From a virus (Duplodnaviria; Heunggongvirae; Uroviricota; Caudoviricetes), in the IMG/VR virus record IMGVR_UViG_2872192773_000009: a DNA stretch of 24,800 nucleotides; one strand, 5' to 3'. The position numbers and the translations under genes were made by a program. Shown here one piece after another: positions 13,352 to 17,133 of the stretch (positions within the stretch are counted from its first letter, which is position 1; each line of letters starts with the position of its first letter). The notes under the pieces are model-generated. The model did not search any database, was not told where the DNA came from, and saw only the letters and a program-made list of their open reading frames with translations.

Positions 13352-13441
13352 ATTTTCCTCCTGTGCCCGCGATTACGCGGGCACAAAAAACCGCATTACG
13401 CAGCGGCTTTCTGGCGGGTTGCAGCCCCAATTTTCATCAGC

Positions 13442-14317
13442 TTAATCGCCTGAGAATCCACCAGCATACCGCCGGTTCGCTTGGTGGTATAAAAACCCAC
13501 GAACGGTGTCATCTGCGTGCACCTTTCCTGCCTCCAGAACATAGTCATTCAGCGCTATATACAGAGGACGGAGTTTGTCTGCCATTTCTGATACCCAGCG
13601 CACCATGGTATTACGGCTCAGCTCCACGCCCTGTCGCGCGTATATTTCTGACTGGCGATATAAAGGGATATGTTCCATATATTTGCTGACCAGGATCCGT
13701 GCAAGTAACCCTGCACTGGCATAACCGCGTTCGATCGGTTTAGGAGGAAGTGGTGCCTGAACGATGACATCACACCGGCTACAGGCCAGTTTGGGACGTA
13801 TGGTTTCGATAACTTTAAAGGCGGTATTAATGATATCCAGTTGCTCTGAGATTGTTTCCCCCATTTCTTTCAGAACACCTCCACAGGCCGGGCAACTGGT
13901 TTCAGCAGGCAGAAGGCGATGTGTCTCCCGGGGAAGTTCTGCCGGCAGCGGTTTTCGTGAAGATTTTCGTCCCGGGAATTCAGGCTTACTGGCGATCGGG
14001 TTTTCTGACGGGGGACTGGTGTCAGGTGAATCTGTGACTGACGATGCATCTTCCAGAAGATTTCTGGCTGTGTTCAGCCGGTTTTCCAGTTCCGACAGTC
14101 GTTTTTCTGCCTGTCGGATCTGATTTTCAAGCTTATGACGCTTTTTCTCTGAACTCTGGCCGAACAACATACGACGCAACCTGTCGAGTTGCGCTTTCAG
14201 CCGTTCAATTTCCTGCTCATAGCCCGCGACCTGACAGGCATACTGTCGAAGCCGACTCTGTTGCTTACGCAACATGGCTTTAAGCAGCTCAATATCATCG
14301 GGGAGTTCATTGTTCAT
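13442..14317 (-). CDS. IS66-family transposase TnpC, 3'-truncated (ends just after the first catalytic HADDT)
   Basis: N-terminal coiled-coil and zinc-finger region (CPACGG...CSRCD) and ...GKVHADDT as in IS66 TnpC, then an unrelated tail and stop. Full TnpC is about 520 aa; 291 aa here. Confidence 0.7.
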   Translation of the reverse strand: MNNELPDDIELLKAMLRKQQSRLRQYACQVAGYEQEIERLKAQLDRLRRMLFGQSSEKKRHKLENQIRQAEKRLSELENRLNTARNLLEDASSVTDSPDTSPPSENPIASKPEFPGRKSSRKPLPAELPRETHRLLPAETSCPACGGVLKEMGETISEQLDIINTAFKVIETIRPKLACSRCDVIVQAPLPPKPIERGYASAGLLARILVSKYMEHIPLYRQSEIYARQGVELSRNTMVRWVSEMADKLRPLYIALNDYVLEAGKVHADDTVRGFLYHQANRRYAGGFSGD

Positions 14318-14664
14318 TCCCTTGTTTTATCACGGGTTATATCCGGATGCCAGGCCGTTCTGTCCGTTTGGGATGTTGCCACGCGATCCCCTCCAGTAGC
14401 ATGGATAACTGAGCTGGCGTCAGGTGCACTTTCCCTTCCCGGGTCACCGGCCAGACGTTTGGCGAACAGGCATAACCCGTCACGATCGGCCCACAGTATT
14501 TTCACCATTTTGCCACTGCGGCCCCGGAAGACGAAGATATGCCCGGAGAACGGGTCATCTTTCAGCGTGTTCTGCACCTTCGAAGCCAGGCCATTGAAGC
14601 CACAACGCATATCTGTGATGCCAGCGATGATCCAGATTTTGGTACCGGTCGGCAGCGTTATCAT
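14314..14664 (-). CDS. IS66-family TnpB (Orf2)
   Basis: 116 aa MITLPTGTKIWIIAGITDMRCGFNGLA..., the canonical IS66 Orf2 as I recognise it. Confidence 0.8.
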   Translation of the reverse strand: MITLPTGTKIWIIAGITDMRCGFNGLASKVQNTLKDDPFSGHIFVFRGRSGKMVKILWADRDGLCLFAKRLAGDPGRESAPDASSVIHATGGDRVATSQTDRTAWHPDITRDKTRE

Positions 14665-15335
14665 CGGATACCCCCTTTCATTTCGCGGATTAGCGCCCGT
14701 AACAGTTCCGGAGTGAGAGGGTCAAACAGTTTTACCACACCTGATTTAAGATGCAGCTCGCACCGTGGGACGTTTCCGGGAGCCCCCTCAGGGCGCTCAT
14801 CATGCTTGTTACGCCAGAAGGGATTTGTAACTGGTCTGGTCGGCTCCGGCGTATCAGTCAGTGCCACCGGGACAGGCATGCATTCCTGTATGTCATCATC
14901 GCTCAGTAAGCCGTCCTCGTACTGGCTTTTCCATTTAAACAGCAGGTTATCATTGATATCGTGTTCTCTGGCGATCCGGGCAACAACAGCCCCAGGCTGT
15001 AACGCCTGCTTAGCCAGACGGACCTTAAATTCACGGCTATAGCTGGTTCGCCGTTCTTTTCGCCATGAGCCTTCTCTGATTTGAGGCTCTGTTAATTCCT
15101 TCTTTCTGTTGGCATAAAGGATGGCGTCAAGTTGAGCGAATGAAACTGAATCGGGCAATGGCCATGCGATACCGGATGCAAGAAATCGCTGAAAAAGCGT
15201 ATGTATTGTGGAATGACTGAGACCCAGACGCTGAGCGATGGCCCGGATGGTCAGTTTATCTTCAAATCTTAAACGCAGGGCATCAGGCAAATAAGAACGG
15301 AAGCAGGGAATATCTTTTGTTGTCTGGGAATTCAT
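14661..15335 (-). CDS. IS66-family TnpA (Orf1, helix-turn-helix protein)
   Basis: 224-aa ORF with a helix-turn-helix segment (LTIRAIAQRLGLSHSTIHTLFQRF), immediately upstream of and overlapping tnpB. Confidence 0.65.
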   Translation of the reverse strand: MNSQTTKDIPCFRSYLPDALRLRFEDKLTIRAIAQRLGLSHSTIHTLFQRFLASGIAWPLPDSVSFAQLDAILYANRKKELTEPQIREGSWRKERRTSYSREFKVRLAKQALQPGAVVARIAREHDINDNLLFKWKSQYEDGLLSDDDIQECMPVPVALTDTPEPTRPVTNPFWRNKHDERPEGAPGNVPRCELHLKSGVVKLFDPLTPELLRALIREMKGGIR

Positions 15336-15417
15336 CGTTCGTGTCCATCAATATAGATGGGCGCGATTGTTGCCAGACAGGACAATTTTCACAAGACGTC
15401 GCTGATGGGGCGCTTAC

Positions 15418-15434
15418 CGTAATGATGGCGACAT
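15418..15434 (-). pseudogene. Stub of a signal-anchor-release (SAR) endolysin gene (first 5 codons, MSPSL plus R), disrupted by the IS66-family element
   Basis: ATG overlaps the holin stop (TAATG). Encoded MSPSLR resembles the N-terminus of phage-21 R21 endolysin (MPPSLRK) as I recall it. The frame is interrupted by the IS end within codon 6. Confidence 0.45.
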
Positions 15435-15649
15435 TATTCACCTCTCGCAGCCTTACGCTTGTCTTCTCTGATTTTGAAGTACAGATTTGTCAGATAAGTC
15501 AGGAAGCCCAGAACCAGACTCCCCAGTACACCAATCGCAGCCCACTGTGACGGACTGACCTGATCAAGCCACTGTAAAAACCAGTAGCCAGCACTGCCTG
15601 CGGAGGTGCCGTAGGCAATGCCCGTTGAAATTTTGTCCATGGATTTCAT
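15434..15649 (-). CDS. Phage holin, S21-like class II pinholin
   Basis: 71 aa [71 protein letters not shown]; two transmembrane segments. Matches the phage-21 S / DLP12 EssD family as I recall it. Confidence 0.8.
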
Positions 15650-15941
15650 AGCCTCACCTCCGCAAATAACGGATGGCGTAGTTTTACACTGAGAAATGAA
15701 AGGGATTTGAAAAGAAAAAACCGCAAAAGCGGGCGAAACGATATATACAGTAAGGAAAGCACTCTATCCAACAAACCACTCACAGTTAATCGGAATAAAA
15801 GCAGAGTGCTTATGAATGATCGCCTGCCCGAAGGTTAGTATTTCTGCACAGCAATTTTGCAAAAAAAAGCGATCATTCATAACTTAAACGTCTTTCAGTC
15901 ACTCCGGGATTTCCCATCATCGCAGACTGAAAGACTCTGAC

Positions 15942-16016
<75 letters not shown>

Positions 16017-16019
16017 ATA

Positions 16020-16095
<76 letters not shown>

Positions 16096-16097
16096 AC

Positions 16098-16174
16098 TGG
16101 ACCGCCACCGGGGACTCGAACCTCGCACACTCAACTTAAAGGGTTGACGCTCTTTCCTGATGAGCTAGTGGCGG
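16098..16174 (-). tRNA. tRNA-like gene, nominal anticodon UUU (Lys) with atypical C33; possibly degenerate
   Basis: 77 nt CCGCCACTAGCTCATCAGGAAAGAGCGTCAACCCTTTAAGTTGAGTGTGCGAGGTTCGAGTCCCCGGTGGCGGTCCA. Perfect acceptor (C1-G72), D and anticodon stems; TTCGAGT T-loop; anticodon loop CCUUUAA; A.C mismatch in the T-stem. Confidence 0.45.
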
Positions 16175-16175
16175 T

Positions 16176-16251
16176 TGGTGGCCCTTGCTGGATTTGAACC
16201 AGCGACCTGGCGATTATGAGTCGCTCGCTCTCACCACTGAGCTAAAGGGCC
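16176..16251 (-). tRNA. tRNA with CAU anticodon, ileX/ileZ-like (tRNA-Ile2, or elongator Met)
   Basis: 76 nt GGCCCTTTAGCTCAGTGGTGAGAGCGAGCGACTCATAATCGCCAGGTCGCTGGTTCAAATCCAGCAAGGGCCACCA; close to E. coli ileX as I recall it. Confidence 0.7.
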
Positions 16252-16355
16252 GGGCGCAGGATAATAACGTTACGAAATCAATGTTGCAAGCATTCAAAAA
16301 TCACCCTTATCTCCTCCACCAGCGCATTCACCATGTCTATCCGAGATAAGTGGCA

Positions 16356-16380
16356 CAAAAAACCCGCTTGTGGGCGGGTT
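16356..16380 (-). terminator. tR'-like intrinsic terminator downstream of the late promoter (stem-loop works in both orientations)
   Basis: Minus strand: cccgc-ccacaa-gcggg followed by TTTTTT, about 65 nt downstream of the predicted late promoter, as for lambdoid pR'/tR' short transcripts. Confidence 0.55.
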
Positions 16381-16432
16381 TTGTTTGCTTTTGCCATCAC
16401 GTACAAAATCGGCAAAGTATCAGATTTGCATG

Positions 16433-16461
16433 AATATATGCCTTTCAATCTACTTTTGCAA
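16433..16461 (-). promoter_or_regulatory. pR'-like sigma-70 late promoter (-35 TTGCAA, 17-bp spacer, -10 TATATT) overlapping the end of the Q-like gene
   Basis: Read from the minus strand: ttgcaa aagtagattgaaaggca tatatt; position matches lambdoid late promoters just after Q. Confidence 0.45.
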
Positions 16462-17133
16462 CACTTTGCTTTGAAAATGCCGTCTTTTTTTTGAACGTGT
16501 TCTCATTACAAACAATAAAGCCTCACTATCCAGTCGGTGAAAAATGTGTTTCATTGCAACCCAGTGACGAGTAAATGTTTTGGACCAGTTTTTAGTTGTC
16601 ACTCCCGCCAGTAATGCCAGCTCCTGGTATTCATAACCTTCCCCACCAAAAAGTTCTGCTTTTACTGCCTGCGCCGCCAGCCAGATTAATTTTTTCAGGC
16701 GTTCCTGCGTTTTCCCTGCAATTTTTCTGGTACCGGATTGAGCATTAAATTCATTCCACGCCCACTGTGTTATCGCGATCTGATATTCCCAACAAATACT
16801 CCCGCTGTAACACCACAACAACCAGGCTTTATAGTGCTCTTCAAGAGACAGAACAGCCCGCCGCCACGATGATGTCGAAAACTCAACCGGACTGACCAGA
16901 GGAATTGACGTCCCCTTCGCCAGCGATTGCTTTCCCGGGATTGGTGGATTATCCCGCGTTATCATTTTTCCAGTCACTTCATCGCGGTACCGGATTTTTT
17001 TACGCCTGTAACGCCCTGTATCGAACATGGCATTCTCTTGCCAGGCTTCAAGCTGACCTTTTGTTGCCCCACTCAAATCAGCGGTGGCGATAATGAGCTG
17101 CTCACGCACAAACTGTAAATACTGGTTATTCAT
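16450..17133 (-). CDS. Putative late-gene antiterminator (Q-like; same position as Qin ydfT/quuQ)
   Basis: 227 aa from the ATG at 17133, which overlaps the rusA stop (ATGA). Assigned mainly by position: directly upstream of the late promoter, terminator, tRNAs and holin, and downstream of rusA. No sequence-level recognition claimed. Confidence 0.45.
   Translation of the reverse strand: MNNQYLQFVREQLIIATADLSGATKGQLEAWQENAMFDTGRYRRKKIRYRDEVTGKMITRDNPPIPGKQSLAKGTSIPLVSPVEFSTSSWRRAVLSLEEHYKAWLLWCYSGSICWEYQIAITQWAWNEFNAQSGTRKIAGKTQERLKKLIWLAAQAVKAELFGGEGYEYQELALLAGVTTKNWSKTFTRHWVAMKHIFHRLDSEALLFVMRTRSKKRRHFQSKVLQK

Follow-up and report, generated by a model that had tools for sequence, protein, structure and literature searches.

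The late control region of a lambdoid prophage, read on the minus strand of a 24,800-nucleotide (nt) stretch of viral DNA (Caudoviricetes; IMG/VR record IMGVR_UViG_2872192773_000009; hereafter the window), contains a 292-nt spacer between a transfer RNA (tRNA) array and the gene of a P21-type holin. Computational analysis suggests that this spacer is a mosaic of non-coding RNA modules transcribed on the late strand. Its first ~230 nt (15941–15710) would represent the structured 3′ trailer and the terminator of a self-contained phage tRNA operon. In the direction of transcription, a sigma-70-type promoter is followed by four tRNAs, three hairpins (H1, H2 and H3), an A/U-rich linker, a predicted intrinsic terminator and the holin leader (Table 1). 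The trailer is proposed to insulate the lysis genes from the tRNA promoter and to protect RNA ends after tRNA processing. Confidence in this reading, comprising mosaic, operon and function, is moderate.

The interval between the Q gene and the lysis genes controls the timing of host killing by lambdoid prophages and, in Shiga toxin (Stx) phages, the amount of toxin. In a widespread prophage lineage, which 540 of 5426 complete Escherichia coli genomes contain, this site is occupied by an autonomous tRNA operon whose long trailer is maintained by selection. A preliminary description of the same DNA had listed inverted repeats and a U-tailed hairpin on the minus strand of the spacer. All of these are present, at positions within ~7 nt of those given there; the mosaic make-up, the tRNA promoter, the holin leader and the separate occurrence of H3 had been missed.

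Selection on base pairing in the spacer RNA

Folding of the minus-strand spacer yields a minimum free energy of −91.5 kcal/mol, compared with −70.7 ± 4.8 kcal/mol in shuffled sequences (z = −4.3; 0 of 200 shuffles as low). Perfect inverted repeats of at least 11 nt were obtained in 5 of 2000 dinucleotide-preserving shuffles of the spacer, while neither a repeat of at least 14 nt nor two repeats of at least 11 nt occurred in any of the 2000. The 11-bp stem pointed out earlier behind tRNA-Gly is the outer stem of H1 (arms 15925–15935 and 15890–15900, 24 nt apart), which starts 6 nt past the tRNA, and the 14-bp inverted arms described as about 45 nt apart form the outer stem of H2 (15869–15882 and 15810–15823, 45 nt apart). 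H3 is closed by a further 9-nt inverted pair (15803–15811 and 15757–15765), which is missing from the preliminary description, and contains the near-invariant sequence GGUGGUUUGUUGG.

Alignment of related loci revealed that the pairing of all three hairpins is retained while their sequences change. For H1, 95.7% of the cells in an alignment of 19 variants (A4) are paired, compared with at most 50% in slid controls, and five pairs have changed on both sides. The common structure of H2 and H3, comprising 41 pairs in 24 diverse sequences (A2), is paired in 97.0% of 979 cells, a value that falls to 32–50% when the 3′ partners are slid by 1–3 columns. Seven of these pairs have changed on both sides, and neither the percentage paired nor the covariation score was reached in any of 500 shuffles. 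The outer helix of H2 accounts for 14 pairs, with four changed on both sides and 96.4% of the cells paired (RNAalifold and pair counts, A2); it is kept even where the interior of the hairpin has been replaced or deleted (L260, L285 and L263). The outer stem of H3 exists in at least six sequence forms, every one of which pairs. Across more than 100 viral contigs pairing is maintained by compensatory and G–U changes, so that the inverted repeats are conserved in related prophages.

Changes on one side of a pair are overwhelmingly changes to G–U (128 cells), and the same structure of H2 and H3 is 97.0% paired on the late strand versus 85.0% on the opposite strand. Both observations indicate that it is the RNA of the late strand that folds. 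The covariance model R1, built on H3, matches the window with 66.6 bits (E = 7.5e-14) on the minus strand, and in the related locus L270 it scores 64 bits on the late strand versus 15.9 bits on the opposite one. At the level of sequence comparison, the alignments show all three hairpins to be under selection as RNA. The linker between H3 and the terminator is non-homologous between clades, yet A/U-rich in each of them.

The preliminary description found no convincing open reading frame (ORF) in the spacer, a judgement that stands: two small ORFs of 38 and 43 aa have no Pfam match, the ATG start of the 38-aa ORF is TTG in HK639-type homologues, and a T-run within it differs in length by 1–3 nt between near-identical copies. 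Neither start codon nor frame of the spacer ORFs is conserved, and a small protein gene is not supported by these comparisons.

The trailer as part of an autonomous tRNA operon

The first tRNA of the array begins ~10 nt past the −10 element of the promoter. In most of 17 diverse loci, inspected by eye and unscored, a TTGCxx element, 17 nt, TAT(C/T)AT and a G+C-rich discriminator are located directly before the first tRNA, while promoter sequences and surroundings otherwise differ; one locus (L120) clearly lacks a promoter. As in RNAs of the 3′ external transcribed spacer (3′ETS) type, the hairpin element is thus situated directly 3′ of the last tRNA of an operon with its own promoter. Among 28 representative loci, tRNAs are found directly upstream of the element and on the same strand in 18, and 0.7–1.7 kb upstream with inserted DNA in between in four; the other six are either truncated upstream or devoid of a tRNA at this place. 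The last tRNA and the first hairpin, which is H1 if present and otherwise H2, are always separated by 0–6 nt. By eye, the linker measures 5–6 nt wherever H1 is present, and H2 begins 0–3 nt after the last tRNA where H1 is absent. H1 always follows directly upon a tRNA, which is tRNA-Met in L120 and in L255 a tRNA ~1 kb downstream of H3. The linker GUCAGA of the window is a putative site of endonucleolytic release, as inferred from this position.

Downstream of the element, a co-oriented lysis cassette is always found, with holins of several unrelated families. Together, the tRNAs, the trailer and the terminator therefore make up an autonomous cassette inserted before the lysis genes.

The hairpin with a U-run that had been noted as terminator-like is present, ending 60 nt rather than ~70 nt before the holin ATG (15649). 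It represents a weakened allele with four G–C pairs and −6.6 kcal/mol, which is below the threshold of the terminator scan and is shared with the Stx2f phage phi467. In relatives, terminator alleles of the form GCCCGC/GCGGGC reach −11.5 to −13.7 kcal/mol, and the terminator of phage HK639, annotated as such, −12.1 kcal/mol. Near-identical copies carry GCGGGC or GCGGGU (6-bp stem), GCGGU (4 bp; window and phi467) or GCGUU (L215). Of 83 unique loci containing H2, 63 have a terminator whose stem measures 5 bp or more (median start 28 nt past the H3 core); the other 20 lack such a stem. In different clades, terminators of unrelated sequence hold the same place after H3, and the terminator goes with the tRNA-linked form only.

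The array consists of a tRNA with anticodon CAU (Met according to ARAGORN, Ile as annotated by RefSeq in a locus with 99.7% identity), an unusual “Lys UUU”, Thr UGU and Gly UCC, which score 72.5, 44.4, 72.5 and 64.9 bits, respectively, on the Rfam tRNA model. The second gene (16098–16174, minus strand) was compared in L008, L020, L024, L031, L044, L047, L075, L090, L096, L104, L109 and L116, where one scaffold with near-identical acceptor, D and T arms carries a hypervariable anticodon loop. This loop is CUUCUAA (Arg UCU) in some loci and CCUUUAA in the window, which is read as Lys UUU and has C instead of U at position 33; elsewhere it is shortened to 5–6 nt and read as Phe, “Stop” or a 2-nt anticodon. 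Possible readings of the second tRNA are a pseudo-tRNA, a decoy for anticodon nucleases or a variant that escapes them.

Distribution of the spacer and relation to stx

In the 540 E. coli genomes the spacer, with a median of one place per genome, is always chromosomal and unannotated, mostly with 95–99% identity; 504 genomes carry it within this range. BLAST of 50,697 phage records retrieved it from six, four of which are near-identical to the window. The only Stx phage among them is phi467, which contains the intact spacer with 98.6% identity. In this phage (L001, 1098–2850), the place of the tRNA promoter and of the first two tRNAs is taken by stxA and stxB with their own terminator, upstream of tRNA-Thr, which is the exact point from which homology to the window continues. 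Due to the missing tRNA promoter, the Thr and Gly tRNAs and the trailer of phi467 should therefore depend on read-through transcription. The preliminary description had placed the spacer at the stx position. In the nearest Stx-carrying relative, however, stx is found upstream of the spacer, and the term is valid only by positional analogy with 933W-type phages. The idea of the spacer as an empty stx slot is corrected accordingly.

The counterpart in HK639 is 76% identical, displays compensatory changes, follows the 3′ half of a tRNA-Gly and has the annotated terminator at its end. An exact-pattern scan of IMG/VR matched at least 120 contigs, and the matches listed include 104 related stretches, which form 28 clusters at 95% identity; 67 more came from a second scan with its pattern set in H3. 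In a scan of genome contigs (596 Gb), the pattern GGTTTGTTGGRTRRRGTG proved too degenerate: almost all 120 loci listed are chance matches, L141 (Phytobacter ursingii) and L215 being the only genuine ones. In L260, an ORF resembling a small heat-shock protein is inserted between trailer and holin and has a FourU RNA thermometer in front of it (2674–2738), which exceeds the gathering score with 91.7 bits and lies ~300 nt past the trailer.

H3 occurs separately in other leaders

H3 was also found without H1, H2 or adjacent tRNAs, at 12 unique viral loci and four metagenome loci. In these lone copies the core UCCRAYNAACCNGGGGUGGUUUGUUGGRU is nearly unchanged, with an almost invariant 3′ strand and a covarying outer stem, while flanks, outer-stem sequence and neighbouring genes are unrelated to those of the window. 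Model R1 detects one H3 copy per locus. The lone hairpin is situated between Q, or a moron ORF, and holin in six IMG/VR and four metagenome loci, and in five loci it precedes the ribosome-binding site of a DUF4406 gene by ~20 nt. At the DUF4406 loci, a variable reverse-transcriptase-like or Abi-like gene adjoins H3 on the other strand. In L246, L251, L253, L267 and L273 the lone hairpin marks the boundary between a conserved block, in which the DUF4406 gene is followed by a gene encoding an Rv2179c-like exoribonuclease domain, and a variable region with reverse-transcriptase-like or other defence-like genes on the opposite strand. H3-only variants, those of these loci included, gave no BLAST match in the phage or E. 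coli collections, and a 36-nt query of the H3 core returned HK639 and noise only.

A terminator within 170 nt is absent from all 12 unique H3-only loci. The presence of terminator-less copies in other late leaders argues for cis action of H3, and the invariance of one strand implies a specific partner. Tentatively, H3 may be a hitherto undescribed RNA element that acts in cis in lambdoid late operons and is recognised by sequence by a partner dedicated to it, which could be the transcription elongation complex, the ribosome, or else a nuclease or defence protein of the host; and/or the whole trailer may be a phage-borne regulatory RNA of the 3′ETS type, which is expressed in lysogens and influences the RNA networks of the host in ~10% of E. 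coli strains. If H3 is a cis element, it would point to an unrecognised step in the processing or elongation of late mRNA; if a stable trailer RNA exists in lysogens, it would be a tRNA-derived addition to the prophage small RNAs (sRNAs) that reprogram pathogenic E. coli.

Proposed function of the trailer and alternative explanations

In a lysogen, transcription from the constitutive tRNA promoter would end at the terminator, keeping the lysis genes silent. Processing would free the tRNAs and leave a trailer RNA of ~225 nt, capped at its 5′ end by the hairpin 0–6 nt past the last tRNA and at its 3′ end by the terminator hairpin. Because of the hairpins at both ends, this RNA appears to be built for stability. 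After induction, Q-modified polymerase starting from pR′ would read through the terminator. Excision of the tRNAs would then cut the late transcript, and H1, H2 and H3 would become the protected 5′ end of the lysis-morphogenesis mRNA, with H3 serving as a cis element for sequence-specific recognition by a putative partner. Insulation of the lysis genes combined with protection of RNA ends is, in our estimation, an evenly balanced proposition.

Several points weigh against this account. Each functional step of the mechanism is inferred, and the literature search found no transcriptome or interactome data for a carrier strain. The compensatory changes separate few clades and amount to ~10–15 independent events, and the relatedness of the sequences inflates the shuffle statistics. 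Moreover, the first IMG/VR pattern lay inside H2, so that the apparent invariance there is partly an ascertainment effect. With the 4-bp terminator allele of the window and phi467, insulation may be leaky, which may be of little consequence in a prophage whose lysis cassette has already been broken by an insertion sequence (IS). Finally, end protection or RNase processing does not explain a near-invariant 3′ strand of H3 next to drifting outer stems, a combination that fits a trans-interaction better.

The main rival explanation regards the trailer as a trans-acting sRNA or an sRNA sponge, which processing of the tRNA precursor would set free, in the manner of the glyW-cysT-leuZ 3′ external transcribed spacer. 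Expressed in lysogens from the tRNA promoter, it would target RNAs of host or phage by means of either the G/U-rich motif in H3 or the A/U-rich linker, with Hfq or ProQ as the probable partner. The unit is autonomous, with promoter and terminator, its 5′ hairpin and 3′ terminator favour stability, and the A/U-rich single strand followed by a U-tailed terminator resembles an Hfq-binding module. In addition, the invariant 3′ strand of H3 suggests a sequence-specific interaction, the unit has been kept intact in the window prophage despite its probable lysis defect, and abundant Hfq-bound sRNAs are known from the same prophage region (PMC4104026, PMC8550237). On the other hand, lone H3 lies in late leaders with neither a terminator within 170 nt nor a promoter of its own and is therefore not a discrete sRNA gene at those loci, the conserved G/U-rich stretch is mostly base-paired, and phi467 retains the trailer but has lost the tRNA promoter. 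Complementary sites are not above chance either: the complement of the H3 motif has two matches in the window versus 2.6 expected, one of them being H3 itself, and complementarity of the H3 core to 16S, 23S and 5S rRNA, the ssrA region and RNase P RNA does not exceed that of shuffled motifs, the best case, one of ten tests, being reached in 4 of 100 shuffles. A resemblance to GcvB (GUCUGCGAU, UUUGCAA) consists mostly of T-runs, and its shared 7-mers and 8-mers are reached by 111 and 133 of 2000 shuffles, respectively. A trans-acting trailer is accordingly possible, yet rather doubtful. A potential internal promoter of H3 within H2 (TTGCAA-16-TACTAA) was rejected, as its −10 element lacks the final T, reads TGCTGA or TACTGA in other clades and was not flagged by the promoter scan.

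Alternatively, the repeats could act at the level of DNA, as module-exchange linkers of lambdoid phages, protein-binding palindromes or an insertion resembling a miniature inverted-repeat transposable element, with RNA folding being incidental. This would fit with the homology of differently organised loci, which begins exactly at the foot of H2 or H3, with the perfect 14-nt terminal inverted arms of H2, whose interior has been swapped in L260 and L285, and with TTTTGCAAAA in H2, which is a perfect DNA palindrome. However, changes on both sides preserve pairing in all three hairpins, and many one-sided changes give G–U pairs, which form only in RNA of the late strand. Furthermore, there is one copy per prophage, with neither target-site duplication nor dispersed copies, which renders a DNA-level role improbable.

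A cis-regulatory attenuator, riboswitch-like or protein-dependent, that tunes leakage from the tRNA promoter into the lysis genes is more improbable still. Attenuators usually consist of a conserved multi-stem RNA with a terminator directly behind it, and terminator strength differs between alleles; yet the terminators are non-homologous between clades while H1–H3 are conserved, H3 is found without any terminator, and the riboswitch and leader families of Rfam gave no match, even with E values up to 1. By eye, moreover, no conserved alternative pairing of H1–H3 with the 5′ half of the terminator is seen in the window or HK639.

The view of the spacer as the decaying remnant of lost cargo, stx or another moron, is hardly credible: although morons are known to insert between Q and the lysis genes (PMC4104026), where extra genes are found in L020 (methylase-like), L045 (small ORF) and L260 (the small heat-shock-like ORF), it is contradicted by the near-identity of the spacer in the 504 genomes, the compensated divergence in HK639, the intact spacer in phi467 with stx located elsewhere, and the absence of ORF remnants and of similarity to other Stx phages. 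Of the origins considered in the preliminary description, processed leader and small RNA thus belong to the right family of ideas, while the scar is contradicted by the phi467 spacer.

Gene context and holin leader

The features of the late region are compiled in Table 1. The segment that contains the short pR′–tR′ RNA also gives weak Rfam matches to isrK and isrJ (22.5 and 23 bits, below the gathering scores), and sRNAs of the StxS/PasD/STnc100 type occupy the equivalent position in other prophages.

Table 1. Features of the late control region on the window, in order of transcription
Feature	Position	Strand	Evidence or description
Q antiterminator	17193–16450	minus	PF06323, E = 4.8e-91
Short pR′–tR′ RNA region downstream of Q	16357–16430	minus	Terminator scan: terminator at 16359–16382
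Sigma-70-type promoter of tRNA operon	16261–16289	minus	Promoter scan: TTGCAA, 17 nt, TATTAT, G+C-rich discriminator
tRNA array, four genes	16251–15942	minus	ARAGORN, Rfam tRNA model
Spacer, 292 nt	15941–15650	minus	Between tRNA-Gly (15942–16016) and holin
Linker GUCAGA, 6 nt, tRNA-Gly 3′ end to H1	15936–15941	minus	Read from sequence
H1	15890–15935	minus	11-bp stem, 2-bp stem, GGG/CCC apical hairpin
H2	15810–15882	minus	Perfect 14-bp outer stem, inner stem UUUUUGCA/UGCAGAAA, small CC-UUCG-GG hairpin
H3	15757–15811	minus	8-bp outer stem, 5′-side internal loop, 6-bp middle stem, 4-bp AACC/GGUU stem, hexaloop
A/U-rich linker, H3 to terminator	15736–15756	minus	Unpaired in centroid fold
Putative intrinsic terminator of tRNA operon, weakened allele	15710–15735	minus	CCGC-UUUU-GCGG, then U6CU4
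Holin 5′ leader	15650–15709	minus	Shine-Dalgarno GGAGGUGA at 15661–15654, read from sequence
Long-range stem	within 15600–15663	minus	GCGGAGGUG (15663–15655) with CACCUCCGC (15608–15600), 9-nt inverted repeat
Holin, P21-type class II, 71 aa	15649–15434	minus	Pfam PF04971 (Bacteriophage P21 holin S), E = 1.4e-35
IS66 ORFs	15335–14661, 14664–14314, 14317–13442	minus	HTH_Tnp_1, TnpB_IS66, DDE_Tnp_IS66

The holin gene displays the features of P21-type dual starts, namely two in-frame starts (MKSM...) and a predicted 9-bp stem over the ribosome-binding site. In the predicted fold of −25.7 kcal/mol, the long-range stem sequesters the Shine-Dalgarno sequence and both holin start codons (MKSMDK). We take this stem to be related to the published dual-start regulation of S21. 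A comparison of the holin leader with the esterase–holin spacer of strain E2348/69 yielded only two exact 9-nt T-rich words (E = 0.44 each), which is not significant.

Directly after the holin stop codon, an element of the IS66 family (13440–15430) breaks the lysis cassette. Due to this element and the loss of the endolysin and Rz genes, which are present in the 99.7%-identical locus of NZ_CP065615, the window prophage is probably lysis-defective. At gathering level, the window further contains Rfam matches to IS009 (44–247, 129 bits), CssrB, “chromosome-encoded Shigella sRNA B” (1004–1183, 230 bits), and the sok antitoxin RNA (19152–19327, 119 bits), all on the minus strand. Two more tRNAs are situated ~4–5 kb past Q, Ser(CGA) on the minus strand (21460–21549) and Asn(GUU) on the plus strand (22541–22616), and may mark the prophage end or the attachment site.

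Comparison with known RNA systems

Comparison with Rfam 15, including AgvB, AsxR, STnc100, isrK, GcvB, RtT, C4, GOLLD, ROOL and riboswitches, gave no match within 15650–15941. A cmscan of 14800–17300 with E values up to 1 detected only the four tRNAs, antisense artefacts and the weak isrK and isrJ matches at 16357–16430. At gathering scores, the spacer has no match in a scan of the whole window, and in six related loci, searched at permissive thresholds, none falls on H2 or H3. Full-text searches for the conserved sequence strings returned only unrelated papers, and the literature on tRNA-trailer sRNAs in prophages and descriptions of Stx2f phages yielded nothing relevant.

The sRNAs of prophage late regions comprise AgvB and AsxR (RF02702/RF02703), PasA and PasC, and StxS/PasD/STnc100 (PMC4104026, PMC8550237, bioRxiv 10.64898/2026.05.13.724894, PMC7547250). 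They share with the trailer the moron site between Q/pR′ and holin in E. coli lambdoid prophages, the non-coding character and, probably, the terminal terminator. However, AgvB/AsxR and PasA/PasC are 51–85 nt long and are transcribed from their own promoters antisense (convergent) to the late operon, and StxS/PasD/STnc100 represent the pR′–tR′ transcript, whereas the element in the spacer is located on the late strand after tRNAs, measures ~180–230 nt and shows no similarity to them. PasA is listed as “> < >” in Table S6 (PMC8550237). Using PasA of E2348/69 (NC_011601, 743415–743499) and its 447-nt intergenic region, blastn-short detected only 7–9-nt T-run words. The antisense layout of PasA/PasC was rejected for the element, which by pairing statistics and the U-tailed terminator is on the strand of Q, tRNAs and holin. 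Published Northern probe sequences of PasB and PasD are absent from the window with up to three mismatches.

The put RNAs of HK022 and HK639 (PMC9378689) likewise are adjacent stem-loops in a nascent phage transcript, which act in cis and contain sequence-specific parts. In contrast to the element, which is present in single copy in the late leader only, put is ~70 nt long and follows the early promoters pL and pR. In the whole of HK022, model R1 with filters off gave a best match of E = 1.6 (11 bits); in HK639 28000–46000 it has no match outside the late leader, and the putL-like RNA of HK639 is unrelated in sequence. Put RNAs render RNA polymerase resistant to terminators by way of the β′ zinc-binding domain. 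Put-like action at this site would make the terminator ineffective, and holin would then be expressed from the tRNA promoter.

Another counterpart is the host RNA 3′ETS-leuZ: Lalaouna and co-workers reportedly described in 2015 the 3′ external transcribed spacer of E. coli glyW-cysT-leuZ as an sRNA sponge. RNAs of this type are released by RNase E and, together with Hfq, act in trans on other RNAs. Both RNAs are non-coding, lie directly 3′ of the last tRNA, end (in the phage trailer probably) at the intrinsic terminator of the operon and are expected to be released by tRNA 3′ processing. The phage trailer differs in being ~4 times longer, in its three large covarying hairpins, which bear no sequence relation to the host RNA, and in the proposed read-through into lysis genes under Q antitermination.

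RtT RNA of the tyrT operon (RF00391) and the “species 1/2” RNAs of the T4 tRNA cluster are stable, structured RNAs that are cut from a tRNA precursor and whose function is poorly understood. They resemble the trailer as structured RNAs co-transcribed with tRNAs, T4 being the phage precedent, but belong to another phage type and architecture, and no Rfam match to the spacer appeared at E values up to 1. The 5′ stem-loop of ompA, the lambda N leader and T7 R1.1 are 5′ stabiliser or RNase III processing hairpins. Like the hairpins of the spacer, they are long and conserved by position rather than by flanks, and they lie at or near a processed mRNA 5′ end, as proposed for H1–H3; to our knowledge, none of them carries a 17-nt invariant strand. 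GOLLD and ROOL, ornate phage RNAs of 500–800 nt from other bacterial phyla, are also structured, non-coding and adjacent to tRNA genes, but have no Rfam match here. In conclusion, H1–H3 as represented by the alignments A2–A4 and model R1 constitute a candidate RNA motif family, absent from Rfam, within a known kind of system.

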